This document shows positions 1-61,720 of a stretch of DNA of 64,000 bases, in pieces; within the stretch, counting starts at the first letter, position 1; each line of letters begins with the position of its first letter. Position numbers and translations under genes: made by a program. The notes under the pieces are model-generated. The model did no database searches and had not been told where the DNA came from. It was given only the letters and a program-made list of their open reading frames with translations. Origin of the DNA: a phage; the sequence record QB031382.1. The stretch is one strand, 5' to 3'.

Positions 1-40
1 AACAACACAACCCTTGCAGAGTTTGTCTAGAGGAGGCAGA

Positions 41-412: not shown

Positions 413-437
413 CAAGAAGTAAGATTGGATATAAGAT
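409..437 (+). promoter_or_regulatory. sigma70-like promoter
   Basis: TTGACA 409-414, 17-bp spacer, TAAGAT 432-437, upstream of gene at 489. Confidence 0.45.
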
Positions 438-488
438 GCTTCACACAAACAGAGAGTTGATTTTTAAATAATTGAGGAGACTGCCAAG

Positions 489-743: not shown

Positions 744-746
744 TAC

Positions 747-775
747 TTGACAACAGTGATGTGGCCTAATATAAT
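747..775 (+). promoter_or_regulatory. consensus sigma70 promoter
   Basis: TTGACA 747-752, 17-bp spacer, TATAAT 770-775. Confidence 0.7.
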
Positions 776-806
776 GGCCCTATCGAAACGGAAGGGGATC
801 ACAGCA

Positions 807-1079
807 ATGACCAAACAATATCAACGAATTAAAGCCAAGGTTAAGCCAGACTACTTGGAGAAGGACTCTGCTTTTCGGGACTGCACCGCAGACAAAGTTT
901 ACACAGGGGCCGTCCTGTTGAACGACGAATTTGAAGTGGATGTGCTGGGTAAAGAGGCTACTATCAAGGACGACCAGGGAGATTATGTTTGCTGCACCAC
1001 ACGCGAGCTAGAAATCTTAGAATACTTCGGTGAAATCTTCACCTCTCTTGATGATTACTTAGATGATGAGGCAGAGTGA
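807..1079 (+). CDS. hypothetical protein, paralog of 489..743
   Basis: Track ORF 747..1079 overlaps its own promoter; trimmed to in-frame ATG 807. Confidence 0.55.
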   Translation: MTKQYQRIKAKVKPDYLEKDSAFRDCTADKVYTGAVLLNDEFEVDVLGKEATIKDDQGDYVCCTTRELEILEYFGEIFTSLDDYLDDEAE

Positions 1080-1480
1080 TGAAAAACATTTGGGATATCA
1101 ATATCTTTGAAGCCTCTGAGCTTGACGGTGCCGATGGGGTTATTATAGTTTCTGATGGAAAGGCAACACTGACCTCTGGACTGACCTATGAGGACACTAC
1201 CTACGCATTGGGCGATCTTGCCTTGTTGAAATCAACAGGCGACTCTCTGGAAGAACGTCTGCAAGGATTTGCCTTTAAAGAAGGCACAAACACCACACTG
1301 ATGTGCACTACACGCACTGTTCAGTTGGGCAACGGGGTATATATGGTCATTGCAGTGTGCCCCAAATTCAGCAACATTAATAAAGATGATGCTGACGCTG
1401 TCAACGACGTGGTTGTCCTATTCGTGGGTGACGCTATGGCAGATCTGATGAATGCAGGAGAAGCAGCAAATGAAGACTGA
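1076..1480 (+). CDS. hypothetical protein
   Basis: Track ORF; start overlaps previous stop. Confidence 0.5.
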   Translation: MMKNIWDINIFEASELDGADGVIIVSDGKATLTSGLTYEDTTYALGDLALLKSTGDSLEERLQGFAFKEGTNTTLMCTTRTVQLGNGVYMVIAVCPKFSNINKDDADAVNDVVVLFVGDAMADLMNAGEAANED

Positions 1481-1772
1481 AAACATTACACCAGAAGGAT
1501 TCCTGAAAGTATACCGTGAACTATTGTATACCACAGAGGATAGTGTTCTAGAGTACCCAGAATATCTTTTGCTGTATAAGTATCTGCAGGAAGCTGGTGA
1601 AAATCTTCCAATTAGCGCAGAAGGTGGTCCAAACTGGGTCTACAGTGCATGGAGAAAGGTTGACATTCTCCCAGATCCCGGTAAAGATATGGTAGTTTGG
1701 CAGCTTATCAACAACATCGGGATTCCAATCTTTGATGAAGCTGTTAAAATCTATTTTGAACTTGACGATTAA
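1470..1772 (+). CDS. hypothetical protein
   Basis: Track ORF 1452..1772 trimmed to ATG 1470 preceded by GGAG. Confidence 0.5.
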   Translation: MKTENITPEGFLKVYRELLYTTEDSVLEYPEYLLLYKYLQEAGENLPISAEGGPNWVYSAWRKVDILPDPGKDMVVWQLINNIGIPIFDEAVKIYFELDD

Positions 1773-1789
1773 TATCAGGAGACCTTAAG

Positions 1790-2035
1790 ATGGCTGAAGT
1801 AGTTGCTCGTGCAGGACAGAAAGTGCGTTGTGTTGAAGTGGGTTTTGGTGGCAAAGGGTGTCAAAACTTGACTCAAGGTAAGGAATACACTGTTGTTTCT
1901 GGCGGTGGTGACGAAAGTATTGTGTTCGATGACCATATTCTGGATGTTGAAAACTTTGAAATAATTGATGATGATGGTGATCCGATCACCTGCCTGCTGA
2001 ACGGGAGTTGGGGTACTTTCGAAGTAATTGGCTAA
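1790..2035 (+). CDS. hypothetical protein
   Basis: Track ORF; RBS AGGAGA upstream. Confidence 0.55.
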   Translation: MAEVVARAGQKVRCVEVGFGGKGCQNLTQGKEYTVVSGGGDESIVFDDHILDVENFEIIDDDGDPITCLLNGSWGTFEVIG

Positions 2036-2117
2036 CAAATATCTGTTGTAATTTACAGAAGGAGATGCTAAAATGGTGTCTCCTTTATGTTGTTCAAATA
2101 AAATCGGAGATTCCATA

Positions 2118-2483
2118 ATGGAACAAATGAACGATCAAGCGTCGGTTGCGATGAACGAGCAAGAACAACCTCAAGAATTTTTCTTAGGGTTAAGCAAAGA
2201 TCAGGTGTCTCTCCTGCTAGTGCTCTCTTCTTTCATGGGGAGACTTCAGGAGCTCACACAACAACCAGAGGCTGAACAATTATTTCAGGCTCTGCGCGAA
2301 GAAGAAAAATATCGTCGTTTGGATTATGCCTTAGGTTGGGTAGCTCAGCAACGAGATATGCTAATGGCCCTTTCTGGGACGACAAGTTTTGCAATGGGCC
2401 TGTTGGCTCAAGTGCAGGACAAATTAATTCAAGCAGGGTTTGCACACACAGCAAACACCAACGAAGAACAAGGAGACAAATAA
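2118..2483 (+). CDS. hypothetical protein
   Basis: Track ORF 2073..2483 trimmed to ATG 2118 preceded by GGAG. Confidence 0.5.
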   Translation: MEQMNDQASVAMNEQEQPQEFFLGLSKDQVSLLLVLSSFMGRLQELTQQPEAEQLFQALREEEKYRRLDYALGWVAQQRDMLMALSGTTSFAMGLLAQVQDKLIQAGFAHTANTNEEQGDK

Positions 2484-3709
2484 TGAGCGTTATTCAACAA
2501 TTTGCCAACCCGATGAATCCGCGTGAAACTGTTTTACTGGCTCACGGCATGATTAAACGTGTCAGCATCAAACCTATCAAAGGTGCTGATCCTACAACAG
2601 GTATTAAAACCACTGTGTGGCAAGGTAAGAAAATCGAGTCCAGTCACACCATCTCTTTACTGATTTCTGAACTGGATTCTTCTGATAACCTACTTCAAGG
2701 TGGTGAAGAAGTTTGGATCAGTATGGGTGATAAATTGCTCAAACCTGGTCATCAAGATTCCGTCTCTGTTAAAATTGATGACAAGTGGGAAACAGTAACG
2801 CCAGGATGGATCGTAAATATCCCTTTAAAGGCAAATGAGCATAACGGTAAGACCTACTACAAAGGCTCATTGGCTAAAATGGTTAAGCTGGGGGCAGGAG
2901 AGGCTCCAGCAGCTCCACAGCAACAAAAACAGCAACAAGGCACACAATCACAAGGCCAGAAGCAGAAACCTCAGCAGAATGCCAATCAGGACGTTTTACG
3001 CATCTATGGTGATGTGACTCAGATTGTTGGTAACGTGGTTACTGTCAATGACCACAAGATTGGCGAAGGTGCTATGGTTGTCTCCGATGAGCAGCTTAAA
3101 GACCTGGTGGTTGGCGGTCGTGTTGCAGCTATTGTTGACAAAGACACCGGGAATATTATCAGCGGCTTCAAGGCCTACCCGCCTAAAGCAGAGAACGGTA
3201 CACAAGGTTCTGGTGGTAAGCGTAAATCCTCTTACGACCCCATTGGTGTAGAGACAGGGCACAGTATCAATGCGTTGCAGATCATTCTGGATCGCGGGTT
3301 TAAGATTGACAGCCCTTTAGATGTGGCTAAAACATTGCACGTGGTCACCATCGAGCTTAAGAAAGAGTACGCTCAAGCCACCAACCGGACTGAAGATGAA
3401 GTAGGTGCCAGTGTTGGTAACGCGGTATTGAATGCTTGTCGCCGTATTGACAAGAAAACGAAAGTTGATGATTTTGCAGCAGCAATTACTGCAGAGGCAA
3501 AAGATGTCTTGACTAATCTTGCTGAACCGTTGTACGATTGGATCAAGAATGGTGCGGGGACTACTGAGCATCAAGAACCTCAAGCTGCCAAACAGGAAGC
3601 CACTCCACAGCAAAACACTGTAGATGCCCCTCCTGTAGATGATGACGGAGATGACCCGATGGATCAGAATCCGGCACAATACGCCTTTGATGATGACATT
3701 CCTTTTTAA
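2483..3709 (+). CDS. SSB-like protein with Q-rich linker and C-terminal acidic DDDIPF tail
   Basis: Track ORF 2336..3709 trimmed to ATG 2483 after AAGGAG; protein ends DDDGDDPMDQNPAQYAFDDDIPF, matching the bacterial SSB C-terminal tip. Confidence 0.6.
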   Translation: MSVIQQFANPMNPRETVLLAHGMIKRVSIKPIKGADPTTGIKTTVWQGKKIESSHTISLLISELDSSDNLLQGGEEVWISMGDKLLKPGHQDSVSVKIDDKWETVTPGWIVNIPLKANEHNGKTYYKGSLAKMVKLGAGEAPAAPQQQKQQQGTQSQGQKQKPQQNANQDVLRIYGDVTQIVGNVVTVNDHKIGEGAMVVSDEQLKDLVVGGRVAAIVDKDTGNIISGFKAYPPKAENGTQGSGGKRKSSYDPIGVETGHSINALQIILDRGFKIDSPLDVAKTLHVVTIELKKEYAQATNRTEDEVGASVGNAVLNACRRIDKKTKVDDFAAAITAEAKDVLTNLAEPLYDWIKNGAGTTEHQEPQAAKQEATPQQNTVDAPPVDDDGDDPMDQNPAQYAFDDDIPF

Positions 3710-3724
3710 CATCTAGTTAACATA

Positions 3725-3754
3725 GCCCTGCCCGAAAGGGTGGGGCATTTTTGT
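3725..3754 (+). terminator. rho-independent terminator
   Basis: GCCCTGCCC-GAAA-GGGTGGGGC hairpin followed by ATTTTTGT. Confidence 0.75.
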
Positions 3755-3771
3755 ATAAGGAGATCTGAAAA

Positions 3772-4188
3772 ATGACATTAGAAGATATCATTGTTAAACC
3801 TGAGAACTATGACCAATACAATCTATCAACTCAATCTGTGGACCTTGGATGCGCCACTGCCAGTGCGTGGCTGGTTAACGGAAAAGAGCTGGATAAATGC
3901 TTAGAAGCTCACATGTCTATTAACAAGTTTCTGGATGAAAATACTCACTGGCTTGAGGGTGCAGGCGTATATGCTTCATGGTTGGAGAGTATGGGATTCG
4001 ACTACCAATCTGAAGAGGGGTGGTGGAGCTATTTAGCTATCTGTCCAGAGACGCTACAATGCTTCATGAAATATTCTGAAGATTTGGAGTACCGGGCGAT
4101 GGTTGATAGTGCTATTGCCCGTTATAGCCGTAAACCTTTTTCCCACGACATTAAAACTGTGGAAGAATTTGTTGAAGTTTTCTGTTGA
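3772..4188 (+). CDS. hypothetical protein
   Basis: Track ORF; RBS AAGGAG upstream. Confidence 0.55.
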   Translation: MTLEDIIVKPENYDQYNLSTQSVDLGCATASAWLVNGKELDKCLEAHMSINKFLDENTHWLEGAGVYASWLESMGFDYQSEEGWWSYLAICPETLQCFMKYSEDLEYRAMVDSAIARYSRKPFSHDIKTVEEFVEVFC

Positions 4189-4284
4189 CACAGATTGAAA
4201 GGTGTGCAATTATAACTTCATAGAACGGGAGGACGTGATGAACGAAGAAAACTGGGATGTATAACTAACAGGAGGCCACTGCCC

Positions 4285-4482
4285 ATGATTTATCGAATCC
4301 GTGTAAGAGAAGATGCACCAGGCTGTTACTTTGACTGGCGTGGGTGGTGGTTTCTCCACCCGATGGATGGACTCACAGATAGAATGCTGGATGCTGCCCT
4401 TTATACAGATACCGACATAGAATATAATCTCTATCTGAAGGACGGTATAGATAACGGTCTATTTGAAGCAATTCCTGTGTAA
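4285..4482 (+). CDS. hypothetical protein
   Basis: Track ORF; RBS AGGAGG upstream; TTGACA at 4185. Confidence 0.5.
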   Translation: MIYRIRVREDAPGCYFDWRGWWFLHPMDGLTDRMLDAALYTDTDIEYNLYLKDGIDNGLFEAIPV

Positions 4483-4550
4483 GAGGATGTGATAGCCATG
4501 TTTTATGATCTTCCTATAGCGCCACCACCTGTTGAACCCGGAGAACTAAG

Positions 4551-4976
4551 ATGACCTATGAAATGCCAAAACTGATTCGTGACGATGCCCAAAACGCTCA
4601 CACCATTATTATGGGCAAACGCATGGATATTATTTGTCATAAAGATTTCTGGGAAGGAAGTTACTTCACAGAGTATTTTGGTAAACTGGACAATGGTCTG
4701 CTGATCCAGTTCTACACCGATGCGGAAAACAACATTCACTGGGAGTTCGAAACTGAAGATATCCATAAACTTTTCACCTTCCTCGGTATTAAGGTTGAGG
4801 CCAAGTTTGAAGAAGGTGAGTGCGACGATTGTGGATTCTACGAGGTAACAGATTTCTATCTTCCGAGTGGTGAGAACCTTTACTATGAAAGCCACTTCGG
4901 TAACTCCAATATGCCACAGTGCTGGACTGAGTTTTTTGAAATTGTGGAAGAGGAGTTGGCATATCGTGATTATTGA
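4551..4976 (+). CDS. hypothetical protein, translationally coupled to macrodomain gene
   Basis: Track ORF; its TGA stop overlaps the GTG start of the next gene. Confidence 0.5.
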   Translation: MTYEMPKLIRDDAQNAHTIIMGKRMDIICHKDFWEGSYFTEYFGKLDNGLLIQFYTDAENNIHWEFETEDIHKLFTFLGIKVEAKFEEGECDDCGFYEVTDFYLPSGENLYYESHFGNSNMPQCWTEFFEIVEEELAYRDY

Positions 4977-5424
4977 TACTGTAGAGGGAGATTTAATCTC
5001 CCTTTTTAAGAGTGGTGCTGGTCACCTGATCCACGGTTGTAACTGCTTCCACACAATGGGCAAGGGTGTAGCAAAACAGATTGCCCGTGAGTTCCCTCAA
5101 GCATTGGCAGCTGACAAAACGACTACCTACGGTTGCCTAAGTAAGCTAGGTGCGTTCTCTCGGTGGGAGCACTTATCTCCGAAAGGTATTGTCTACGGAA
5201 TCAATCTATACACTCAGTTCTACCCAGGGCCTAATGCTGAATATTTCTCAATTCTGAAAGGCTTTGAACGAGTCAATGAGATATTCAAGGGATCTACTTT
5301 ACCATTCTACATCCCTAAGATTGGGTGCGGCATAGGCGGCTTGAAATGGGGACACGTAGAGGACGTTATTAACCTTGCCACTTTTGATATAGATATTATC
5401 GTGGTGGAGTACAAAGAGTGTTGA
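4966..5424 (+). CDS. macrodomain protein, TARG1/DarG-like ADP-ribose hydrolase candidate
   Basis: Track ORF 4867..5424 trimmed to GTG 4966 after GAGGAG; motifs EGDLISLF..HLIHGCNCFHTMGKGVAKQIAREFP and PKIGCGIGGLKWGHVEDVI resemble TARG1/OARD1-type macrodomains. Confidence 0.65.
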   Translation: MIIDTVEGDLISLFKSGAGHLIHGCNCFHTMGKGVAKQIAREFPQALAADKTTTYGCLSKLGAFSRWEHLSPKGIVYGINLYTQFYPGPNAEYFSILKGFERVNEIFKGSTLPFYIPKIGCGIGGLKWGHVEDVINLATFDIDIIVVEYKEC

Positions 5425-5449
5425 CAGCCGGATTTTAAGGTGGTATAGT
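5421..5449 (+). promoter_or_regulatory. sigma70-like promoter
   Basis: TTGACA 5421-5426, 17-bp spacer, TATAGT 5444-5449. Confidence 0.65.
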
Positions 5450-5477
5450 CACCACAACGATTAAGACAGGGGGCACT

Positions 5478-5678
5478 ATGGAGACTAAAATCTTAATTCT
5501 AGCTGTGATAGATACAACAGAAGGGGCTATATTTGAATCTGCAGGAGGGTATTTCTACCTGCCCTATGGAAAAAGAACTTCCGAGCCGAGTAAAGATTCA
5601 ATCCTCAAAGTGTTCCCGTGTTCTTTCTGGCTGGAGATTCTGGTAGAGGATTGCAAAGGATTGGAGAGACAATTATGA
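5478..5678 (+). CDS. hypothetical protein
   Basis: Track ORF downstream of promoter. Confidence 0.5.
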   Translation: METKILILAVIDTTEGAIFESAGGYFYLPYGKRTSEPSKDSILKVFPCSFWLEILVEDCKGLERQL

Positions 5679-5869
5679 GAAACAAGAAAGAGCTTTACTC
5701 TGGTGAGTGGATCAACGATCAACAGATCGGAGAGGTAACCTGCTTCCGATGTTTTACCAGGTACAATATTAAAACTGCACCAAAAAGTGTTCCAAAGACT
5801 GACGGTTATTACATAAAAGAACCTCATTGCCCAAAATGTAAATGCCGATTGTACTGGAGCAATCTGTAA
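5675..5869 (+). CDS. small zinc-ribbon protein
   Basis: Track ORF 5618..5869 trimmed to ATG 5675 after GGAGAG; CFRC and CPKCKC cysteine pairs. Confidence 0.5.
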   Translation: MRNKKELYSGEWINDQQIGEVTCFRCFTRYNIKTAPKSVPKTDGYYIKEPHCPKCKCRLYWSNL

Positions 5870-5873
5870 GAGG

Positions 5874-5901
5874 TTGACATCTGAAAACTGCAGTGTATAA
5901 T
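5874..5901 (+). promoter_or_regulatory. sigma70-like promoter
   Basis: TTGACA 5874-5879, 16-bp spacer, TATAAT 5896-5901. Confidence 0.65.
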
Positions 5902-5932
5902 ATACTCATAAACTAACAGAGAGCGATGTATT

Positions 5933-6124
5933 ATGGTAATTTTTAACCGGGATGGTATCATAGTTAGACAGCACCCGTTCCTTGAATACTATCAAATTGA
6001 GCAATGGTGCTACGGGGATTGCAGTCACTCCTATGGGCAAAGTTGGGGATATCGCACAGTTTTTGAATCAACAGACCTTGACAAAGTAAGACAGAAAGTT
6101 TTAGAACTTATTAACAACAAGTGA
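5933..6124 (+). CDS. hypothetical protein
   Basis: Track ORF downstream of promoter. Confidence 0.5.
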   Translation: MVIFNRDGIIVRQHPFLEYYQIEQWCYGDCSHSYGQSWGYRTVFESTDLDKVRQKVLELINNK

Positions 6125-6131
6125 GTATGAT

Positions 6132-6464
6132 ATGGTAACATTAGAAAGACGTAAAGCTATTGCCGCTACACTGGCAGACATCTTTTGGGATTGTAATTTA
6201 AAAGATACCCGATATTGCGGCGCATCTGTAGATGTATTATTCCCACGGCCCACCATTGTTGCAATGGGCAGTCTACTGGGCGTAGTTGCAGGTGCATGGG
6301 ATAAGGAAGGCGGTTTTTATATCTGGCAACCTGACTACGGTACCTGGAAAGAAGTAAGGGGTGCTGATGACTTTGGGCCTGCAGTTGCTAAGATGGATGG
6401 CTGGGAAATTTATGTTGGAAACGACATGAAGCTGAAAGGCGAGATTGTTTACTGGTTACCTTAA
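6132..6464 (+). CDS. hypothetical protein
   Basis: Track ORF. Confidence 0.45.
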   Translation: MVTLERRKAIAATLADIFWDCNLKDTRYCGASVDVLFPRPTIVAMGSLLGVVAGAWDKEGGFYIWQPDYGTWKEVRGADDFGPAVAKMDGWEIYVGNDMKLKGEIVYWLP

Positions 6465-6484
6465 GAAAGTGCAGGAGATAAAGT

Positions 6485-6730
6485 ATGAACAAAGGGTGGA
6501 CATTCGTAGACGGCGTTGAAAACATGCCTCTCGGAAAGTATATCGTAGCCATGGCTGACAAGAATGGCAATGTAGATTTCGGAGCTTGCGAGGTTGTTCT
6601 TGCAGGATCTGGTGGCTATGTGCACAAAACTGGGGTAATTAATGGTCAGTTCTACTTTGATCACAACCCTGTTGTAGCGTATATGGCTATGCCAGAGTTC
6701 AAGCTACCAAAGGAAGGTGCTGATGTTTAA
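6485..6730 (+). CDS. hypothetical protein
   Basis: Track ORF; RBS AGGAGA upstream. Confidence 0.55.
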   Translation: MNKGWTFVDGVENMPLGKYIVAMADKNGNVDFGACEVVLAGSGGYVHKTGVINGQFYFDHNPVVAYMAMPEFKLPKEGADV

Positions 6731-6956
6731 GCTTAAATCTGCATGGAACATTGCTGTAGGCGATGAGATCCGCATTCCGGGTGGGAAGACCGTTATGAAG
6801 ATATCCCGTATTGAATACGAAGGTGACCGTGTATTCCATATTTTTGCAGAAGATGGTCGAGAAATTTATATACAGGCGGGCTCACACATCTATATTCGTA
6901 AAGGGGATGACAAACGACAGAGATCATCATTTCAACTGCAGGGTATGTATTCCTGA
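6717..6956 (+). CDS. hypothetical protein
   Basis: Track ORF; start overlaps previous gene. Confidence 0.5.
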   Translation: MLMFKLKSAWNIAVGDEIRIPGGKTVMKISRIEYEGDRVFHIFAEDGREIYIQAGSHIYIRKGDDKRQRSSFQLQGMYS

Positions 6957-7288
6957 CAATCATTGCGCTGATCATCTTGGTGGTGGTGTATGGATTTGTT
7001 ATCCTGCCTATTCTTGAGACATTTAGTTTGTGTCGGTGTTGGAGAAAGGCTTACGGACCACAGCCGTGGAAAGACTGGCCTCATCTGTTACGCATAGCGT
7101 TCTCCTATGCCTATGATCACTCCAGCAGTGCATGCATAACTGGGTATCACGCCCACAACTGGAACTGGGAAGGGTTGGGGAGATGGAATGTTATAAAAAC
7201 TATACCTCTACGCATGTACAAGCCTAAAAACAAAGATAGTTGATACTTGAAAATCCCTGGCACATCAAACATAAGGAGGATTTCTAAA

Positions 7289-7543
7289 ATGGATTTCCTC
7301 CTTTTGATATTTTACCTGGCCGGATATTTTAAAATTCTTAGAAAATCAGAAAATGGATCGAAAACTAAAATGGATTTTTTCAAGACAGGCACGATAAGCT
7401 GTGCTAATCATCCTATCGTTCGCACCGTACTTCAAATCACCGTTCCAGATTTTCCGCACACACTCTCACCCTTCTACCAGAACTTTCCCAACTTACCTTC
7501 GGCCTTTTATGACAATAAGTTAATTATTATCAGTAAGTTTTGA
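7289..7543 (+). CDS. hypothetical small protein with hydrophobic N-terminus
   Basis: Track ORF 7247..7543 trimmed to ATG 7289 after AAGGAGGA; sits in repeat-rich AT-rich DNA so coding status is uncertain. Confidence 0.35.
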   Translation: MDFLLLIFYLAGYFKILRKSENGSKTKMDFFKTGTISCANHPIVRTVLQITVPDFPHTLSPFYQNFPNLPSAFYDNKLIIISKF

Positions 7544-7554
7544 TACATCTCTCT

Positions 7555-7745
7555 CAGTACTCGATCTGTTTTTCATTTCAAAGATTGGATTTTCTGAAAA
7601 TTTTTCTCGATAAATTTTTCGGTACTCGATCTGTTTTTCGTTTTCTGAATCGGATTTTCTTGAAATTGGTCCAGCACCAGATCTAAAATTTTTGGGAACG
7701 AAAGCGATTTTTCGTTTTCAGAAATGGATTTTTAAAATTTCTATA
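7555..7745. repeat. tandem direct repeats, about 65-bp unit, 2-3 copies
   Basis: GTACTCGATCTGTTTTTC exact at 7557-7574 and 7622-7639, each followed by GGATTTTCT-GAAA-type sequence; degenerate third copy near 7700. Confidence 0.7.
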
Positions 7746-7874
7746 TGGGAATATTTTATGAGGTATTATTTTATATAGAATTGTCACGGTAGGTAATTAG
7801 CATGCTAACTAAATTTATGAAATGCGAAAAGTTCTCATTTAGAATTTTGAATGATAATCATTCTCGTTTGCAGA

Positions 7875-7903
7875 ATAACGGGCACCCCCGGTGATTGTCT
7901 CCC
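7875..7903. repeat. 29-bp inverted-repeat arm A, partner at 15983..16011
   Basis: ATAACGGGCACCCCCGGTGATTGTCTCCC is the exact reverse complement of 15983-16011; degenerate tandem copy near 8012-8050. Confidence 0.85.
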
Positions 7904-8412
7904 GGCCCCTACTGCCCCGGCTTGCTATTATAGTATCACACAGGACAAAGAAAGCAAGGAGTTTTTGCATAAATTTTTAGACGATAATGATAATCGTTCT
8001 CATTTCATGCAGCGCCCATCCCCGGTGGTTGTCTCCCCCGTCACCGGTGCCTGCCGTCCTTTCGATATGTATATTGTGCCACCTGGCGGGGCCGCTGTCA
8101 ACACTTTTCAAAAATTTTTTTCTAACCTGATGCACTAACCGCTGCAACCTGGCGGGGCCAGCCTGGCAGGACCTAACTGACCAGGTGGGCCTATGCTATA
8201 GGATAGGTAACAATTGAAGAGGAGGTACAAAAAATGGAAGGTAATATGATCCCCTGGAAAATGTAGCTATTAATGACGCTGAGGCTATCGCCCTGGTTGA
8301 AAAGGCTATGGCGGGAGCGTTGGAACATAAAGAAGAGTACGAAAAAATTATGGTTAACCTGGCAGGGTCGGCGGCTGAGGAATTTTGCCCAAAAAATAAT
8401 TTTAACTAGTGG

Positions 8413-8441
8413 TTGACAGCTCGGACAGTTTTTGCTATTCT
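8413..8441 (+). promoter_or_regulatory. sigma70-like promoter
   Basis: TTGACA 8413-8418, 17-bp spacer, TATTCT 8436-8441. Confidence 0.5.
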
Positions 8442-8493
8442 TATCCTCGCAAGGTGAACAACACCACACTAATTAACAGAGAGGATAAAAATC

Positions 8494-8691
8494 ATGAACG
8501 CCTACGGAATCAAAGTACGTCGCAACACTCGCCAGGTGGTCACCAATCAAGTGATTTGCCGGGCGGATGTAACCATCAACAACGGGCAAGGCCTTTATAA
8601 ATTTCGTCGCGGTCATAGTTATACCCTGCAACAGCTTAATCGTTGCGCCCTGACAAAAGGCCAGATCAACCACTGGTTTAATAAAAAATAA
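8494..8691 (+). CDS. hypothetical protein
   Basis: Track ORF; RBS GAGGA upstream. Confidence 0.55.
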   Translation: MNAYGIKVRRNTRQVVTNQVICRADVTINNGQGLYKFRRGHSYTLQQLNRCALTKGQINHWFNKK

Positions 8692-8694
8692 GTA

Positions 8695-8723
8695 TTGACA
8701 TATAGCCTGACACAAAATACACT
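8695..8723 (+). promoter_or_regulatory. sigma70-like promoter
   Basis: TTGACA 8695-8700, 17-bp spacer, TACACT 8718-8723. Confidence 0.5.
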
Positions 8724-8755
8724 AAAAGCACAAAAGACACTAAGAGGATAAAATC

Positions 8756-9154
8756 ATGAAAACCACTACCTTTAATTTTGACAATGCGGACTTTTCTTTT
8801 TCTGATGTCAAGAACTGCCGCCGTGATCGTGGATTTTATAAGGCTTATAATCTGGTGGGCCTGGACGATGACAATAATTTGCACGAAGTAGCTGAGATCC
8901 GGTATTATGCCGCCGCCAGTGGGAACACTCACTACTGCGTTTTTTGGATACACGACAACAAGAACAATAAGTACGGCTATACTGGCGGCAAGGCGAGCGG
9001 TCACGGTTATGATAAAGCTAACGCAGCACTTGAGAGCGCATTAAATGCTATGGGGATCACTGCCGACGGCTGGATCTACGAAGAAGAGTTTTTGTCGGCA
9101 CTTGCTGACCGCCTGGGATATAAAAAGCACATTGTAACATGTGCCCACGAATAA
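8756..9154 (+). CDS. hypothetical protein
   Basis: Track ORF; RBS AAGAGGA upstream. Confidence 0.55.
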   Translation: MKTTTFNFDNADFSFSDVKNCRRDRGFYKAYNLVGLDDDNNLHEVAEIRYYAAASGNTHYCVFWIHDNKNNKYGYTGGKASGHGYDKANAALESALNAMGITADGWIYEEEFLSALADRLGYKKHIVTCAHE

Positions 9155-9165
9155 AAAAAAAATTA

Positions 9166-9193
9166 TTGACACGCTGCAAAATTCAAGTAAACT
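9166..9193 (+). promoter_or_regulatory. sigma70-like promoter
   Basis: TTGACA 9166-9171, 16-bp spacer, TAAACT 9188-9193, preceded by A-tract. Confidence 0.5.
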
Positions 9194-9241
9194 AGACACA
9201 AAAGGCGGGAATGTTTCCCGCCAACACAAAGGAAAAAGATC

Positions 9242-9646
9242 ATGAATAAGAACGTACGCCGCATCATGAACGAGTTGGCAAACGATGAAAAAATTATTGA
9301 CATGCATTTGATCAACATTTGCCGCCGTTGTGTAACATATAACAACCGCGCCGCAAAAGCGCGTGAGATGAACGCAAAAGGCACCTTAAAGCCATTCCAG
9401 GTGGTGGTAAAGGCCATTAAAAATGTAACTAATACGGCAAACCAGGTACAGGGGAACACCAACGAGAGTACCAATATTGATCCGGCTTACATCATGAAAC
9501 GGATCCGGACCTGTAAGAACAAAGAGCAAGTGTATAATGTTATAGACTGGTTGGATTCTATGGGCGACGTGGTGTACAATAGATTCTCGGCAGCTATTGA
9601 GATCCAGCTTGACAGGTTGGACGGTAAAGTACTGAAAACTTATTAA
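9242..9646 (+). CDS. hypothetical protein
   Basis: Track ORF; RBS AAGGAAA upstream. Confidence 0.5.
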   Translation: MNKNVRRIMNELANDEKIIDMHLINICRRCVTYNNRAAKAREMNAKGTLKPFQVVVKAIKNVTNTANQVQGNTNESTNIDPAYIMKRIRTCKNKEQVYNVIDWLDSMGDVVYNRFSAAIEIQLDRLDGKVLKTY

Positions 9647-9694
9647 GTTTATTTTTAGATGGCCTTGACTCCAGGGCCATCAATAAAGTAAACT
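9645..9694 (+). promoter_or_regulatory. repeated promoter-hairpin module, copy 1
   Basis: AT-rich tract, then GATGGCC..GGCCATC inverted repeat containing TTGACT, then TAAACT; near-identical copies at 10266 and 13992. Confidence 0.55.
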
Positions 9695-9846
9695 AGTCTC
9701 AACTAAGCGAAAAAGGGGGCTTTAAGATGAGCACTACACGCCAATACACAAAGGTAACTATTATCGTTTGCGTTGTCGGTTACATCCTGGCGCAAATGTT
9801 AATGAGTAGCGCCAACAGTTTTGCAAAATTTTTCTTAAATTTTTAA

Positions 9847-9874
9847 TTGACAAGCTAACCCAAATCAGTATACT
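9847..9874 (+). promoter_or_regulatory. sigma70-like promoter
   Basis: TTGACA 9847-9852, 16-bp spacer, TATACT 9869-9874. Confidence 0.55.
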
Positions 9875-9925
9875 TAAACACGTAAACGGGAAAACTTCCC
9901 AGAACACACAAAAGGAGAAAACACC

Positions 9926-10267
9926 ATGACTACTATGACCGCCGCAGAAAAAGCTATGCAGATCGCCGCGCTGAAAAAACAGATCGCAGACCTTGAGAAC
10001 AAGATCGATAACTTTGAAATCGACGAGGACAAGTACGACGAAAACTATAATGAATGGCTAGACGAGATCCACGGCGAAATTATGATCGGTAACATTTCTT
10101 TTCTTCCGTCGCGTATCCTCAAGGAGTTAGATCCTATCGCTTACCGCTGCGGATTTAGCGACTACATCGACAGCCTGGGCATTGAGGACGACGAAGACTA
10201 TCAAGAATTGCAGACAGAGTTGGAAGAAATGAAAGAGGAGCTTTCAAAGCTGGAAGAAAACGAGTAA
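9926..10267 (+). CDS. hypothetical coiled-coil acidic protein
   Basis: Track ORF; RBS AAGGAGA upstream. Confidence 0.55.
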   Translation: MTTMTAAEKAMQIAALKKQIADLENKIDNFEIDEDKYDENYNEWLDEIHGEIMIGNISFLPSRILKELDPIAYRCGFSDYIDSLGIEDDEDYQELQTELEEMKEELSKLEENE

Positions 10268-10317
10268 AATTTATTTTTAGATGGCCTTGACCCCAGGGCC
10301 ATCAATAAAGTAAACTT
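10266..10317 (+). promoter_or_regulatory. repeated promoter-hairpin module, copy 2
   Basis: TTTATTTTTAGATGGCCTTGACCCCAGGGCCATCAATAAAGTAAACT, near-identical to copies 1 and 3. Confidence 0.55.
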
Positions 10318-10353
10318 TACACTGTTACACTGAACTAATGAGGAGTTAAAACT

Positions 10354-10599
10354 ATGGCAGCACTAATCACAAAATATTATGCGCCCACCAACACCAAAAG
10401 CGCCCGTATCATGGTAAAAGGTTTCGGACGTAAAAAGGTCTACACCTGGGACTATTCCCTAGATATGGAAGACAATTATACCAACGTAATGACTGATTTT
10501 ATTAATGATCTGAATAAACAGATCCTAACCGACTACAAAGTGACCGATATTGTTTACATAGGTGAAGGCGGGATCTGTTTTGTAGGCATTGTGAAATAG
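10354..10599 (+). CDS. hypothetical protein
   Basis: Track ORF; RBS GAGGAG upstream. Confidence 0.55.
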   Translation: MAALITKYYAPTNTKSARIMVKGFGRKKVYTWDYSLDMEDNYTNVMTDFINDLNKQILTDYKVTDIVYIGEGGICFVGIVK

Positions 10600-10675
10600 T
10601 TATTTTTTCGGTGGTCCTGGTTGCAGGGGCCATCTATAAAGATAATTTATTAACACCATGAAAGGAGAAAGTAAC

Positions 10676-11029
10676 ATGATCAGCGGGGCCAGTTTTATTA
10701 TCGGCGCTATTGCTACGGCTTTAATTGTAAACAAGATCCAGGATAAAAAGGAAAGAGGAAGTACCGCCCTTGCAGAATATCCATTTTGGACATTCAACGA
10801 TAACGAAGATTATATTATAAAGTATAAAAATAAAGAAGGCGACCAAGTAACACCGCGACCGATCCCGGCTTACAAAATGCAGGAAACACTATACCGCCTT
10901 GAGGCGGGCGGCGCAAAAATTGTTGACTTTTGGGGATACGACCACACAGATCAGGAAGTTATAAAGCGCCGTATCCGGGCTATTCAGGCCAATATTGAGG
11001 TTAGCAAGAGGGGAATATATGAAAATTAA
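10676..11029 (+). CDS. hypothetical membrane protein
   Basis: Track ORF 10658..11029 trimmed to ATG 10676 after AAGGAGA; N-terminal hydrophobic helix. Confidence 0.5.
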   Translation: MISGASFIIGAIATALIVNKIQDKKERGSTALAEYPFWTFNDNEDYIIKYKNKEGDQVTPRPIPAYKMQETLYRLEAGGAKIVDFWGYDHTDQEVIKRRIRAIQANIEVSKRGIYEN

Positions 11030-11216
11030 TTTCGAGAAAATTGTAAAGCGCCCTCATGATTCCGAAGAGTTGCCAGAACGCCGCCAGCGCAACAATAAGC
11101 TGAATAAGCCAAAAAGGTTTGGGAAGATCTGGCGTAATCATTATGATCGTAAATTGCCCGGCCTACTTTTGGAACGTGAACGACAGGCAGAACGCTACCG
11201 CCATAAAGACAAATAA
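11019..11216 (+). CDS. hypothetical basic protein
   Basis: Track ORF 10995..11216 trimmed to ATG 11019; overlaps previous gene end. Confidence 0.45.
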   Translation: MKINFEKIVKRPHDSEELPERRQRNNKLNKPKRFGKIWRNHYDRKLPGLLLERERQAERYRHKDK

Positions 11217-11224
11217 CAACCAAC

Positions 11225-11253
11225 GCCCCGCCATTGTGCGGGGCTTTTTATTT
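11225..11253 (+). terminator. rho-independent terminator
   Basis: GCCCCGC-CATTGT-GCGGGGC hairpin followed by TTTTTATTT. Confidence 0.8.
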
Positions 11254-11373
11254 CTATCCTACGAATAGCGCCCCTGGTTGGCCCTGTAAGCGCCAAAAAG
11301 GCCCCCACCTATGCAATCGCCCCTTTAACCTGAAAACATCGCCCAGGGCCGTCCTATGGCGTTAAAAATATCA

Positions 11374-11401
11374 TTGACATCGTCAACAGGTTAGCTATAC
11401 T
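11374..11401 (+). promoter_or_regulatory. sigma70-like promoter
   Basis: TTGACA 11374-11379, 16-bp spacer, TATACT 11396-11401. Confidence 0.6.
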
Positions 11402-11433
11402 AACCACATCAAAGAGAGAAAGGAGTAAACGCC

Positions 11434-11694
11434 ATGCGTAAATTAAAAAATTTTGATAAAGTTGATGTTATCCTGAATAATTTTTACTACTGCAACAATA
11501 AAGCTATCTGGTGGCGGGATAGTTCCACCGATAAAGTCAAAGCGCGCTTTCTTCAAGGGCACTGGCAAGGCCGCCCAGTGATTAAAATCATGGGGCAATT
11601 GGTAGCGTTTAAAAATTGCCGCCGCGTTGATGACGTTGAGGAGATTTTAAACATTTTGCGCCACAATAATTTAAAAAATAGTGTTGACAAGTAG
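11434..11694 (+). CDS. hypothetical protein
   Basis: Track ORF; RBS AAGGAG upstream. Confidence 0.55.
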   Translation: MRKLKNFDKVDVILNNFYYCNNKAIWWRDSSTDKVKARFLQGHWQGRPVIKIMGQLVAFKNCRRVDDVEEILNILRHNNLKNSVDK

Positions 11695-11711
11695 ATCTCA
11701 ATAAGTATAAT
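11684..11711 (+). promoter_or_regulatory. sigma70-like promoter
   Basis: TTGACA 11684-11689, 16-bp spacer, TATAAT 11706-11711. Confidence 0.65.
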
Positions 11712-11768
11712 TAAACACACAGGCGGGAAAACTTCCCGCCACTAACAAAGAAAACAGGAGAAAATATC

Positions 11769-12392
11769 ATGACCACCGTTAACATTACCACAGGTTACAA
11801 TTTATCTTTCGACGTGCTGACCGACGAACAAAAAGAAAAAGCCATTGAAATGGTCCGCGAAAGAGAAGAACGTAGCGGGGACGATTTTTTCGCAGAAAAT
11901 GTAATTGAATACTATAAAGAACAAGTTTTTCCAGAGTACGGCCTTGAGGATACCGAAGTACATTGGTCCGGCTTTTGGTGTCAAGGCGATGGCGCATCGA
12001 TCAGTGCTGAAAATGTAGACTTAGAAAAATTCTTGCGTAAAGTCAAGGCCCTGACCAAGTTCAGATCAATTCGTCACTTGTTCGGCACAATGCACGATGG
12101 CGAACTATCCGCCAGTGTTGAACGCGACAAGTACAGCCATTACAGCCATGAAAACACTATAAGCGGGTACATTGATACCACTTGGATAGATCTGACCGCC
12201 AAACAAGAAAACAAAGTGGAAGACCTGGAAGAATTGATCACCGAGACGGTACGGGAGCTATCCCGCAAGGTTTACGTAGACCTTGAGGAGGCCTATCTAG
12301 AACAGTTCACCGCAGAAAACCTGATCGGCCTTATTCAGGCCAATGATTGGCGGTTTGATGTCGATGAATATGGTGAGATGACTTTTTCATAA
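11769..12392 (+). CDS. hypothetical protein
   Basis: Track ORF; RBS AGGAGA upstream. Confidence 0.55.
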   Translation: MTTVNITTGYNLSFDVLTDEQKEKAIEMVREREERSGDDFFAENVIEYYKEQVFPEYGLEDTEVHWSGFWCQGDGASISAENVDLEKFLRKVKALTKFRSIRHLFGTMHDGELSASVERDKYSHYSHENTISGYIDTTWIDLTAKQENKVEDLEELITETVRELSRKVYVDLEEAYLEQFTAENLIGLIQANDWRFDVDEYGEMTFS

Positions 12393-12485
12393 ATAAAGTG
12401 TTGCAATAACCTAAAAACCTGCTATATTAAAACTCAAGGGGGGCAAGACATTTGCCCGCCAACACAAAACAAAGAGGATAACATC

Positions 12486-12866
12486 ATGAAAAATACTACT
12501 AAGGCTATTGACACCGTTATGTTTAACCTGGTTACACTCCGTGAAGATATGAAAGATCTTCCGCGTGAAACAGTGTGCGACCATATCGAAAACTATCGCA
12601 AACTAATCAAAGAGTTGCCATTAAAACGAGATCAGTACGCGGCTAACGCTATGCTAAACGCCATGATCAAAAAGATGATCCAGTGTGATCTAACCCTGGC
12701 CTATGATTATGCAGGCGGTCGTTTTGCAGTATACAATCAGCCCGTGCCTGGTATGAGCACCACCGAAGAATTGCACGCGCTCAATCTAAAACAGGACGTG
12801 TGGGATAGTATGCCTCGCGTGGTGGTATGGGTAGAAAGCGGGAAGATTTACGGCGATAATTTTTAA
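12486..12866 (+). CDS. hypothetical protein
   Basis: Track ORF; RBS AGAGGA upstream. Confidence 0.55.
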   Translation: MKNTTKAIDTVMFNLVTLREDMKDLPRETVCDHIENYRKLIKELPLKRDQYAANAMLNAMIKKMIQCDLTLAYDYAGGRFAVYNQPVPGMSTTEELHALNLKQDVWDSMPRVVVWVESGKIYGDNF

Positions 12867-12876
12867 TCAGGTAGCA

Positions 12877-12902
12877 GGCGGCATAATTGCCGCCTTATTG
12901 TT
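12877..12902 (+). terminator. rho-independent terminator
   Basis: GGCGGC-ATAATT-GCCGCC hairpin followed by TTATTGTT. Confidence 0.65.
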
Positions 12903-12930
12903 GATCAGAACTGCAAAAGGGGTACATAGA

Positions 12931-13302
12931 ATGGAATTTATTATTTTGGCCGTATTGGTTGCCTTATTTAACGCCTGGATCGCTGGCAAGATGGGAAGAT
13001 CCGCCTTTTTATGGTTTATTATATCTATTTTCCTGGGGGTGGTTGCAACTATTGTACTGGTTATCCTTGCAATTGTTGACAAGGGGAATAATAGAAAGGG
13101 TAAAGTATTTTCAGACCTGTACGACGCTCAAACGTTTGTCAACGCCTATTACAGCGATCTTCCAGTCTCCCTACGTTGCAGCCTTGCACAACAGGTTTTT
13201 GATGAGGCTAAAACCAGAGATCACGCCCATGAGATTTGTTTAACTGAGGCGGATCGCTTATTTGAGAGGAATAGAAAATATGTGGGCCAGCCGTTTAAAT
13301 AA
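12931..13302 (+). CDS. hypothetical membrane protein
   Basis: Track ORF 12898..13302 trimmed to ATG 12931 after AAAGGGG; two hydrophobic helices. Confidence 0.5.
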   Translation: MEFIILAVLVALFNAWIAGKMGRSAFLWFIISIFLGVVATIVLVILAIVDKGNNRKGKVFSDLYDAQTFVNAYYSDLPVSLRCSLAQQVFDEAKTRDHAHEICLTEADRLFERNRKYVGQPFK

Positions 13303-13521
13303 TACCACGTTAATTAATCCATTTAGTGAAGATTTGAGGCCAGCCGCCTGGCGGAATGGATTCAATAACGAAAAATTTACTTTTAGGCCTGATCTTGAGG
13401 AATTTTATAACAATGGATCGAACAACGACAGAAATAATTTTTCTCGTAATGTGCGTGGCGATAATACTCCTGGGGGCCATTGTAAACCACGTCACTGCTA
13501 ACAGGAGGAAAGGGGGAGACG

Positions 13522-13641
13522 ATGACAACCAAGGATAAGCCCAGCACCGACAAGGCGCGCCGCGTTATGGTATGGCTTGAGATTATCGCCCTTGAAATAT
13601 TGTTAGGCGTAGGGATGTATTTTATCGCCGTACGTACCTGA
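13522..13641 (+). CDS. small hydrophobic protein, 39 aa, absent from track
   Basis: ATG 13522 preceded by AGGAGGAAAGGGGGAG; hand translation MTTKDKPSTDKARRVMVWLEIIALEILLGVGMYFIAVRT. Confidence 0.45.
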   Translation: MTTKDKPSTDKARRVMVWLEIIALEILLGVGMYFIAVRT

Positions 13642-13645
13642 TAAC

Positions 13646-13677
13646 GGCCCCCGATCCCTGGGGGCCTGACTTTTTTC
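13646..13677 (+). terminator. rho-independent terminator
   Basis: GGCCCCC-loop-GGGGGCC hairpin followed by TTTTTTC. Confidence 0.65.
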
Positions 13678-13705
13678 AAAAAAAAAAATTTTTTCTTCCG
13701 GGGTG

Positions 13706-13734
13706 TTGCAATCCGGTCCGGAATATGGATAATA
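13706..13734 (+). promoter_or_regulatory. promoter, family 2
   Basis: TTGCAA then conserved AATATGGATAATA; same architecture at 14524-14552. Confidence 0.45.
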
Positions 13735-13792
13735 ACAATCAACGGGGAGACACTCCCCACCACACAGACAAAGTTCCAAAAGGAGAAACAAA

Positions 13793-13993
13793 ATGAGCAA
13801 CAATATCCGCGTTATTAACTTCAAAAAAGAAGAAAAAATAGCTGTGCTGGTTGATGGTCAAGAAATATTCAAGGGGTATTACGAAGATCATCAGGCGGCG
13901 ATCAGTATTACCCGCGTAATTGGTTACCATAATTTTTACCCTCAAGGCGCTGAGGCAGCAGTAAAACGAATTAAGGAGATTGTAGGCCTGTAA
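13793..13993 (+). CDS. hypothetical protein
   Basis: Track ORF; RBS AAGGAGA upstream. Confidence 0.55.
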   Translation: MSNNIRVINFKKEEKIAVLVDGQEIFKGYYEDHQAAISITRVIGYHNFYPQGAEAAVKRIKEIVGL

Positions 13994-14043
13994 AATTTAT
14001 TTTTAGATGGCCTTGACCCCAGGGCCATCAAATAAAGTAAATT
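13992..14043 (+). promoter_or_regulatory. repeated promoter-hairpin module, copy 3
   Basis: TTTATTTTTAGATGGCCTTGACCCCAGGGCCATCAAATAAAGTAAAT. Confidence 0.55.
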
Positions 14044-14085
14044 TAAAACCTGTTAAAATAATCAGTGCAAAAAGGAGAAATGATC

Positions 14086-14385
14086 ATGTTTATACCCGCC
14101 AATGATCTTTATTTCTTTGATGGTCAGATCGTAGACGGCGTGGAAGTTGAGATCGCTGGATGTAAAGGCGGCCAGGTAATGATCTTCCGCAATAGTGCCT
14201 TTAACGATCATTTTATTACAATGACTGTGGAAGTTAAAAAGCTGGATGATAAGAAAACACTCATTGACTATTCCGTGAAAGATCATCCAGACTACCACAT
14301 GATCTATGGTGATTTGTGCATTGTTGACCGTGACAAGGTGGGCGGCATTGTGATCGCTATTGTGAACGATGTTTTCTCTGAATAA
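14086..14385 (+). CDS. hypothetical protein
   Basis: Track ORF 14065..14385 trimmed to ATG 14086, best spaced from AAGGAG. Confidence 0.5.
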   Translation: MFIPANDLYFFDGQIVDGVEVEIAGCKGGQVMIFRNSAFNDHFITMTVEVKKLDDKKTLIDYSVKDHPDYHMIYGDLCIVDRDKVGGIVIAIVNDVFSE

Positions 14386-14523
14386 TTCCGGCAAATGATG
14401 CAAAATAAGGCCCATGGCAGGGCCTGCAGCGATATAATCACACAAAGGCTATGCAGTTGCATGGCCTTTTTATTTTAGCGCTACAGCGGCCCCCAAGGCG
14501 TTTAAAAAATTTTTAAAAAGTAC

Positions 14524-14552
14524 TTGCATCAAGTCCGACAATATGGATAATA
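14524..14552 (+). promoter_or_regulatory. promoter, family 2
   Basis: TTGCAT then AATATGGATAATA. Confidence 0.45.
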
Positions 14553-14610
14553 GGACTTATCAGGGGGGGGCGGCCCCCAATCATTAACCGGATAGATGGG
14601 AGTTAAAATC

Positions 14611-14895
14611 ATGGCTATTGTTACCGTGGGCGATGTAGTAGAAATGGAAGCAAAATACTTAAAAGCGGGTATGCATATCCTACGCAACGATCTTGAACTA
14701 GTCCTGACAATGGTCGACTATAATCCCGGTCAGGATTATCCAAGCATCGACTACTTTTTCCAGTATGTTGACGAAGAATTAAAAGAAGATGACGCTTATC
14801 GTGGTGAATTTTGCAATTTCTTTTGCCCTGATGAGGTTGTAAAAGTTATCTATCAACCTGGCGTACCTTTCCCGTTGCACGCCATCAATAAATAA
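14611..14895 (+). CDS. hypothetical protein
   Basis: Track ORF 14596..14895 trimmed to ATG 14611 after GGGAG. Confidence 0.5.
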   Translation: MAIVTVGDVVEMEAKYLKAGMHILRNDLELVLTMVDYNPGQDYPSIDYFFQYVDEELKEDDAYRGEFCNFFCPDEVVKVIYQPGVPFPLHAINK

Positions 14896-15020
14896 GCCTG
14901 GCGGGGCCGAAAAAGGCCCCTCCTGAAACTATGAAAAAATAAAGATAGGTGAATCATCATGATGGAACAAATTAAACGCGCTGAGGCTATTAATGGCAAT
15001 GATGCCGCCAACATGACAGA

Positions 15021-61716: not shown

Positions 61717-61720
61717 AATT

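Follow-up and report, generated by a model that had tools for sequence, protein, structure and literature searches.

The DNA under study is a 64,000-nt stretch of phage sequence (sequence record QB031382.1), referred to below as the window, and the element in question is an AT-rich tract at 7545-7850 that consists of three direct copies of a ~45-bp unit, all in the same orientation. The tract is non-coding, its sequence is more strongly constrained than that of the flanking genes, and its units have homologues in a second genus of phages. The window belongs to an rV5-like myovirus of the genus Vequintavirus (97% identity to FV3 and 91% to rV5 over bases 6500-9500). Our preferred interpretation, to which we assign a probability of roughly 0.45, is that the tract represents a DNA-level, iteron-like array of candidate binding sites for a sequence-specific protein, situated within an origin-like or control module between two early operons.

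The three copies, U1 to U3 (Table 1), have a common layout: GGTACTCGATC is followed by a T-rich spacer and then by TCGGATTTTC. Written as a pattern, this corresponds to a left box GG(T/G)(A/T)CTCGATC, a T-rich centre of 13-15 nt and a right box TCG(G/T)ATT(T/C)TC. The original prediction, made from the sequence alone, had described an exact repeat at 7557 and 7622 and a third, degenerate unit. Indeed, the 18-mer GTACTCGATCTGTTTTTC is found exactly at these two positions and nowhere else in the 64 kb with three or fewer mismatches (0.05 expected), and a repeat search delineated three units with starts at 7547, 7612 and 7686, spacings of 65 and 74 bp and 74-80% identity. The tandem character was recovered by that search only, as Tandem Repeats Finder did not score U1-U3 as an array. 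The recurrence of AATGGATTT-type motifs, also part of the prediction, was confirmed as well. The motif AAATGGAT has four copies in 7244-7850 and none elsewhere on the same strand of the window, and six of the 18 window copies of GGATTT lie within 7244-7850, all in + orientation (7291, 7355, 7372, 7587, 7652 and 7726). The repeat motifs of the locus thus share one orientation and are essentially confined to it within the window, which implies that they do not constitute a general promoter motif. A sigma-70-like promoter inside the tract (TTGAAA-18-TAAAAT at 7660-7689) was considered and rejected, as it is lost in most relatives (GGAAAT...TGAAAT). The same holds for a CRISPR-like array, since the 'spacers' are allelic variants rather than unrelated sequences and the repeats have no hairpin. 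The GC content of the tract is 0.30-0.32 and its duplex stability is low (z 3.5-3.9), the 300-bp stretch 7518-7818 being the third least stable of the window (z 3.6). Between U1 and U2 lies TCGATAAATT, which is the same in 15 of 16 distinct sequences (L014 has a G at position 8) and which we provisionally take to equal the high-affinity consensus of H-NS. On its right side the tract adjoins arm A of an inverted repeat, as had been noted: the arm at 7875-7903 recurs as a perfect inverted copy of 29 nt at 15983-16011.

The locus that contains the tract spans ~990 bp (7244-8234), from the stop codon of the rV5 gp195 homologue (7243) to the next real gene, which starts with ATG at 8235 behind the ribosome-binding site (RBS) GAGGAGG. 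In this part of the genome the many small early genes are on the + strand. Conservation was assessed in an alignment of 16 relatives, two of them IMG/VR contigs with 90% and 82% identity (the latter being L019), length in 17 sequences and gene calls in 14 annotated relatives. In none of the frames of the locus, on either strand, did we find a start, a frame or a length that is conserved among the relatives, and the calls of open reading frames (ORFs) across 7244-8234 in the annotated relatives are mutually inconsistent or absent. The claim of a repeat-structured non-coding locus was thereby borne out, and the tract does not behave as ordinary coding sequence. The opposite view, that it encodes small proteins (ORF 7289-7543, ORF 7540-7686 or the 34-aa minus-strand ORFs), could appeal to the fact that some annotators call ORFs at the locus and that the frame from 7540 is open for 48 codons in most relatives. 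However, the start of that frame is not conserved (TTG, GCG, TCG or TAG). ORF 7289-7543 has ATA instead of ATG as start in phage NHEP1, its length varies between 7 and 99 codons among the relatives, and its C-terminal part is read in different frames as a result of 1-nt and 2-nt indels at ~7375, 7410 and 7463. Likewise, the GTG of the minus-strand 34-aa ORF at 7787 is GTA in most relatives. On the basis of these starts and lengths ORF 7289-7543, the 7540 frame and the two 34-aa minus-strand ORFs were ruled out as genes. Moreover, the unit spacings of 65 and 74 bp are not multiples of three, and in a substitution test the conservation was uniform over all three codon positions. A coding function is therefore hardly conceivable.

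Although it does not code, the tract is under strong purifying selection. The stretch 7556-7850 measures 295 nt in 16 of the 17 sequences (294 nt in L019) and 7851-8100 measures 250 nt in 16 of the 17 (251 nt in L009), while 7790-8100 is nearly invariant and free of indels in the 16 relatives. Even in L019, at 82% identity, U2 and U3 are almost unchanged. The mean pairwise identities of the aligned relatives (Table 1) exceed that of the upstream coding flank in U2 and U3 and over most of the part to the right, and fall well below it in the spacer at 7385-7555. A BLAST search with the tract and the gp195-like flanking gene returned matches in ~117 Vequintavirus genomes only. Capture of the tract from the host was rejected, there being no match among 5,426 E. 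coli genomes.

Homologues of the gp190-like gene downstream of the locus occur in other genera, where the non-coding gaps beside it were informative. In Certrevirus (Cronobacter phage CR3, Pectobacterium phage phiTE and Enterobacter phage F1M1E) three tandem units are present at the same relative place, with spacings of 78 and 63 bp. The nine Certrevirus units align without gaps to those of the window and share GG(T/G)(A/T)CTCGATC(T/G), a T-rich centre and TCG(G/T)ATT(T/C)TC. When a hidden Markov model (HMM) of the Certrevirus units was run on the window, U2 and U1 were the top two matches (E 0.011 and 0.019), U3 being weaker (E 3.2). Conversely, five Certrevirus units were the five best matches of the Vequintavirus-unit HMM (E 2e-4 to 0.06). 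On the + strand of the Certrevirus loci CTCGATC is found inside the modules only. The order of elements also corresponds, as the Certrevirus units are followed by four AATGAGAATCATTCTCATT palindromes (the last three exactly 29 bp apart), a GC core and a promoter on the opposite strand. Homology of the units thus extends across two genera. It does not extend further: the unit HMM had no nhmmer match to the DRD repeats of T5 and SP01 or to the AT-rich repeats of phi92-like phages, so that homology to either was rejected and the 45-bp units are specific to Vequintavirinae. Only the 8-nt core TCGGATTT of the units recurs in T5-like phages and in Klebsiella phage KP13-16.

Table 1. Features of the locus, their positions in the window and their conservation (identities are mean pairwise values among the aligned relatives).
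Feature	Position	Strand	Remarks
U1	7555-7596	+	left box GTACTCGATC conserved; right half variable among relatives
U2	7620-7661	+	best-conserved copy, GGTACTCGATCTGTTTTTCGTTTTCTGAATCGGATTTTCT; identity 0.97-0.98; invariant in L019
U3	7694-7735	+	left box short by 3-4 nt; overlaps A/U-rich hairpin 7688-7725
TCGATAAATT	7606-7615		U1-U2 spacer
U1-U2 spacer plus U2	7594-7653		identity 0.97-0.98
U3 segment	7684-7743		identity 0.96-0.98
Right part	7834-8102		identity 0.96-0.996, except one 0.89 bin at 7954-7982
Upstream coding flank			identity ~0.91
Hairpin AAGGAGGA / TCCTCCTT, then TTTGATATTTT	7273-7280 with 7296-7303	+	15-nt loop
Block A	7265-7385	+	conserved; AAATGGAT(TT) copies at 7287, 7351, 7368; 7325-7384 identity 0.94-0.98
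C-rich, G-poor spacer	7385-7555	+	identity 0.68-0.80; length kept at 170-172 nt; C 29-35%, G 12-16%
18-bp palindrome TAATTAGCATGCTAA(C/T)TA	7794-7811		perfect in 7 of 17 sequences compared
Degenerate copy of palindrome 1	7817-7842
Fur-box-like palindrome 1, TGATAATCATTCTCG	7846-7869		7852-7866 matches 7-1-7 motif at 12 of 14
GC-rich hairpin core 1, ACGGGCACCCCCGGTGATTGTCTCCC...	7875-7920		inverted paralogue 15983-16011
Fur-box-like palindrome 2, GATAATGATAATCGTTCTC	7983-8008		7983-8001 matches 19-bp Fur consensus at 17 of 19 (0.02 expected)
GC-rich core 2	8011-8060		direct paralogue of core 1
Sigma-70-type promoter	8066-8125	-	TTGACA (8101-8096), 17 nt, TGgCACAAT (to 8073); A/T-rich UP-like stretch 8102-8125
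Fur-box-like palindrome sites, window	7817-8125
Fur-box-like palindrome sites, L023	455-835
Fur-box-like palindrome sites, L025	1280-1615
Fur-box-like palindrome sites, L028	2470-2840
Fur-box-like palindrome sites, L029	500-1090
Fur-box-like palindrome sites, L030	740-925

Several considerations favour a role at the level of DNA, and more specifically in protein binding. The units are conserved as sequence and not as structure, the only hairpin among them (that of U3) is not shared across the genera, there is no covariation, and direct repeats beside regulated promoter activity are typical of nucleoprotein assembly sites. The protein that would bind the units could be encoded by the phage and common to Vequintavirinae, or could be a host factor. 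The bound units would nucleate a protein-DNA complex in easily melted DNA, which might be reached or activated by a leftward transcript and possibly be gated by host Fur at the neighbouring palindromes. The process served may be replication initiation or transcriptional insulation; the low duplex stability, a promoter that is aimed at the repeats and a similarity of the left box to the oriC 13-mer (see below) are in line with an origin-like role.

The module to which the units belong is an indel-free stretch of ~0.55 kb (7556-8125) that comprises, from left to right, the units, an 18-bp palindrome, two to three Fur-box-like palindromes together with two GC cores, and the promoter on the minus strand. 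This promoter fires leftward through the cores and palindromes, toward the repeats. Its -35 hexamer is invariant among the relatives, changes in the -10 hexamer keep or improve the match, and the promoter recurs in nine lineages from three subfamilies. Palindrome 1 is invariant in the relatives, apart from one C-to-T change in one of them, and palindromes of the Fur type concentrate in the modules. A 16-nt inverted repeat (TGGCACATCAAACATA / TATGTATATTGTGCCA, 7258-7273 and 8066-8081, 81% complementary) brackets the whole non-coding stretch; its right arm coincides in part with the -10 and start region of the promoter.

A strong and conserved promoter that points at the tract could also be taken as evidence for a functional non-coding RNA. 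The tract would then be the A-rich, unstructured 3' portion of the leftward 8101 transcript, antisense to the early operon, or alternatively part of a + strand RNA, the GGAUUU, ARN or U-rich repeats of which would bind an RNA-binding protein such as Hfq, CsrA or RNase E. In line with this, a search of the minus strand from the 8101 promoter to the tract gave no intrinsic terminator, and all motif copies share one orientation. The structural evidence points the other way. The fold of 7545-7850 showed no excess stability over shuffled sequence (z -0.58 for the + and +0.16 for the - strand), and folding of the alignment yielded no supported compensatory pair in the tract, the few two-sided changes coming from the divergent L019 alone. 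Scans with Rfam (at gathering and permissive thresholds) and for tRNA and tmRNA returned nothing in the region. A long-range hairpin between U1 and U2 was rejected, as it is broken by an A7584-to-C change, and so was a CsrA-type sponge, because the motif GGA varies to GAA, AGA and CCG in relatives. For the GC-rich cores no clean count of covariation across families could be obtained, their 3' arms being poorly aligned. Altogether, we regard an RNA-level function of the tract as distinctly unlikely.

A somewhat better case, though still an unlikely one, can be made for a zone of transcription termination or insulation. Early transcripts that run rightward past the 7243 stop and the 7273-7303 hairpin would expose the spacer at 7385-7555 and be released by Rho and by the U3 hairpin with its U-tract in the T-rich repeats. 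The repeats would then act as pause or release signals, and the convergent promoter at 8101, itself conserved, would reinforce the effect. Within the + transcribed part (1-18000) of the window no C-excess is stronger than that of the spacer (top 0.18% of windows), its composition and its length have been kept despite 20-32% divergence, and on untranslated + strand RNA it resembles a Rho-loading (rut) site. The hairpin at 7688-7725 has 16 A/U-rich bp with three G.U pairs and is followed by GGAUUUUUAAAAUUU; only its + strand version resembles a terminator. At pair 7697-7716 four sequences have AU and 12 have GU, so that natural variants preserve the pairing on the + strand only, and the hairpin with GGAUUUUU is kept within the genus. 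Nevertheless, near-invariant 45-bp units that persist across genera are not normally required for termination. The Certrevirus units lack the U3 hairpin, a manual pairing of the sequence gave no comparable hairpin for U1 and U2, and the stem in U3 is itself A/U-rich and two bases away from the U-tract.

The hairpin at 7273-7303 lies 30 nt past the stop codon of the upstream gene. It was predicted as a GGAGGA...TCCTCC structure that sequesters the RBS of ORF 7289-7543. The structure itself exists and has one compensatory change, which lends some weight to termination: 12 distinct sequences have GC at pair 7279-7297, whereas G-C has become A-U in two relatives. There are in addition several changes that preserve pairing through G.U (pair 7277-7299, for instance, is AU in eight sequences and GU in six). 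The proposed sequestration, on the other hand, did not hold up. Because the ORF behind it is not conserved, it is more plausible that the hairpin acts behind the upstream gene, in termination or processing, than that it traps an RBS.

The palindromes to the right of the units, and not the repeats, are similar to the Fur operators of Enterobacteriaceae. They match the 19-bp Fur box at 17 of 19 positions and the 7-1-7 motif TGATAATnATTATCA at 12-14 of 14, and they are clustered. Unlike Fur operators, they are situated downstream of the only strongly predicted promoter and not over it. Judged from the sequence, it is equally possible that they are read by a dimeric protein encoded by the phage rather than by Fur. 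The distribution of this part of the module is much wider than that of the units. The KP13-16 segment with the palindromes and, to their right, the GC-rich sequences matches 280 phage records, which include Phapecoctavirus, Justusliebigvirus and phages of Salmonella, Klebsiella and Cronobacter, as well as T5-like phages for the palindromes. The GC core that follows the Fur-box-like palindromes (GAATAnCGGGCA..CGGTGaTTGTCTC) is found in Certrevirus, in phi92-like phages and in the T5-family phages SP01 and R7. The combination of palindrome, GC core and opposite-strand promoter extends to phi92-like phages: among the nine lineages checked, Vequintavirus included, the sigma-70 promoter after the core is present in Certrevirus and phi92-like phages. 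A GC-rich segment of ~130 nt (L023 655-790, L025 1450-1580 and L028 2670-2800) is common to Certrevirus and phi92-like phages and absent from the window. It contains TCTTTACAnTTCTTTACA, the reversed reading of which is GTAAA-N5-GTAAA, presumably a direct repeat of the CpxR-box type. The segment, which had no Rfam match, probably represents a gene for a structured RNA or else a regulatory site.

Comparison with phage T5 is instructive. The left-terminal-repeat Repeat Region 3/injection stop signal (iss) region of T5 (Heusterspreute 1987; Davison 2020, bioRxiv 10.1101/866236) is, like the tract, untranslated and better conserved than the neighbouring ORFs, and it likewise has arrays of both direct repeats and AATGAGAATCATTCTCATT palindromes. 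The palindrome array of T5 lies inside the annotated iss (9140-10149), beside the DRD repeats and ~300-500 bp away from where the terminal repeat ends; the SP01 record starts exactly at that end. There are clear differences as well. The iss is located at the terminal-repeat end and tied to two-step injection, whereas the locus in the window lies among early genes. T5 has paired DnaA boxes and DRD repeats (TGTGCAAATCCGACA), whereas the locus has no conserved DnaA boxes and its unit HMM does not recognise DRD. The only DnaA-box-like sequence at the locus is TTTTCCGCA at 7450, a 9-mer with one mismatch in the variable spacer, and it is not conserved. In the T5 family five to seven palindromes stand in tandem, 29-35 bp apart in SP01 and less regularly in T5, as compared to two to three boxes ~135 bp apart in the window. 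Davison (bioRxiv 10.1101/866236) described the T5 repeats as highly conserved and of unknown function, without mention of Fur, and Fur is not mentioned in the T5 literature examined. The function of the iss region has been unexplained since 1987.

The resemblance could be taken to mean that the tract is a signal for DNA entry or packaging, like the injection-stop and terminal-repeat-end region of T5, with repeats bound by the terminase or by a membrane or host protein. The arrays of Fur-like palindromes inside the iss, near DRD repeats and terminal-repeat end, the composite of palindrome and GC core in SP01 and R7, and the similarity of the DRD core TCGGATTT to the right box of U2 would all fit. 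Against this, Vequintavirus is reported to package by headful with permuted ends (PMC13211470), and the unit HMM and the missing DnaA boxes set the locus apart from T5. A packaging site at the tract was rejected since the GenBank record starts of the relatives do not cluster at the locus but near window ~19.4 kb or follow reference conventions. We therefore consider an entry or packaging signal highly improbable.

The array of candidate protein-binding sites that we favour has a parallel in the iteron origins (lambda ori, P1 oriR, R6K gamma). These also consist of direct repeats in one orientation in easily melted DNA, with adjacent promoter activity and sites for host factors. Their units of ~20 bp are spaced at ~22 bp, whereas the tract has units of ~45 bp that are 63-78 bp apart. 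Moreover, the tract has no adjacent initiator gene, no skew signal and, considering Certrevirus, no conserved AT-rich inter-unit DNA. The 13-mer of E. coli oriC has the consensus GATCTnTTnTTTT, and the left box plus T-run of the units (GATCTGTTTTT) fits its first 11 positions. The mobile promoter-early stem-loop (PeSL) cassettes known from T4-type phages offer another comparison, as similar terminator-promoter cassettes are present in the window at 9634, 10256, 13982 and ~15921-15962. The module has its own promoter with a GC-rich hairpin in the spacer, whereas the AT-rich units have no conserved promoter.

A number of observations weigh against our interpretation. The HMM E-values between the two genera are marginal to moderate. 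The inter-unit DNA of Certrevirus is GC-rich, which means that the conserved property is the unit and not AT-richness, and that a role in DNA unwinding is not conserved. The units are 63-78 bp apart, where classical iterons have ~22 bp, and their spacing does not strictly follow the helical phase. All motif copies are found on the strand that is transcribed in the early region, an arrangement compatible with a role at the RNA level as well. No binding protein was identified, and the literature searched contains no experimental data at the locus for any relative (no transcriptome, origin mapping or functional screen). A global skew switch is absent from the locus; likewise, the rV5 paper reported no skew signal there, with switches only where transcription changes direction. 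Finally, as a site for an origin, the 2.6-kb non-coding region at ~17-21 kb of the window seems the better candidate.

In a broader and more speculative proposal, which we put forward as rather doubtful, the units, Fur-like palindromes, GC hairpin cores and antisense promoter together form an unrecognised control module, the palindrome and GC-core part of which would be common to virulent enterobacterial phages that are otherwise unrelated (rV5-like, phi92-like and T5-like), including the T5 injection stop signal. Such a module would read the iron status via Fur in order to gate an early DNA transaction, be it replication initiation or a switch between early transcription units, and the 45-bp units would be the assembly sites of the effector. 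The presence of similar palindromes, often with the same GC core, in Certrevirus, phi92-like and T5-like phages suggests that a common host protein that reads them may exist. The element is not described in the literature searched: the rV5 paper reported 104013-106618 (2.6 kb) as the only non-coding region and annotated ORFs at this locus. In the annotations of rV5-like phages the stretch is filled with hypothetical small genes that vary from record to record; its ultra-conserved, non-coding status corrects these and identifies a cis-acting site to be left intact in phage engineering.

Some observations on the neighbouring genes and on other parts of the window may be added. The gp195 homologue has ACG at 6914 where FV3 has an ATG start, and the 58-codon gene at 8235 is frameshifted by the loss of one C from the run at 8251-8254 (four C, as compared to five in most relatives). 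Either sequencing errors or recent pseudogenisation would account for both. The small proteins that adjoin the module in the window, KP13-16 and tuntematon had no Pfam match. The large non-coding region at ~17050-20900, which corresponds to the rV5 stretch mentioned above, is rich in direct as well as inverted repeats and includes the DNA that, over 200-300 bp, is the least stable in the window. It has further Fur-like palindromes at 18136-18266 and successive G-rich, AT-rich and C-rich segments at 18400-19050, and the GenBank records of several relatives start near window ~19.4-20.0 kb. At 59194-59394 three tandem 22-bp units TAACTGTCCGCAATACGGACAC, each with a palindrome GTCCG-N5-CGGAC, adjoin the 100 bp with the lowest stability in the window (z 4.9), a layout that resembles classical iterons plus an unwinding element. 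In the terminator-promoter cassettes at 9634-9694, 10256-10316, 13982-14042 and 15921-15962 the -35 hexamer is located in the hairpin loop (e.g. GATGGCCTTGACTCCAGGGCCATC...TAAACT). Finally, a cluster of seven tRNA genes is found at 61642-62454, in which the ARAGORN call at 62111-62209 has a four-base anticodon loop reading (atcc) and a weak Rfam score of 35.5 bits.

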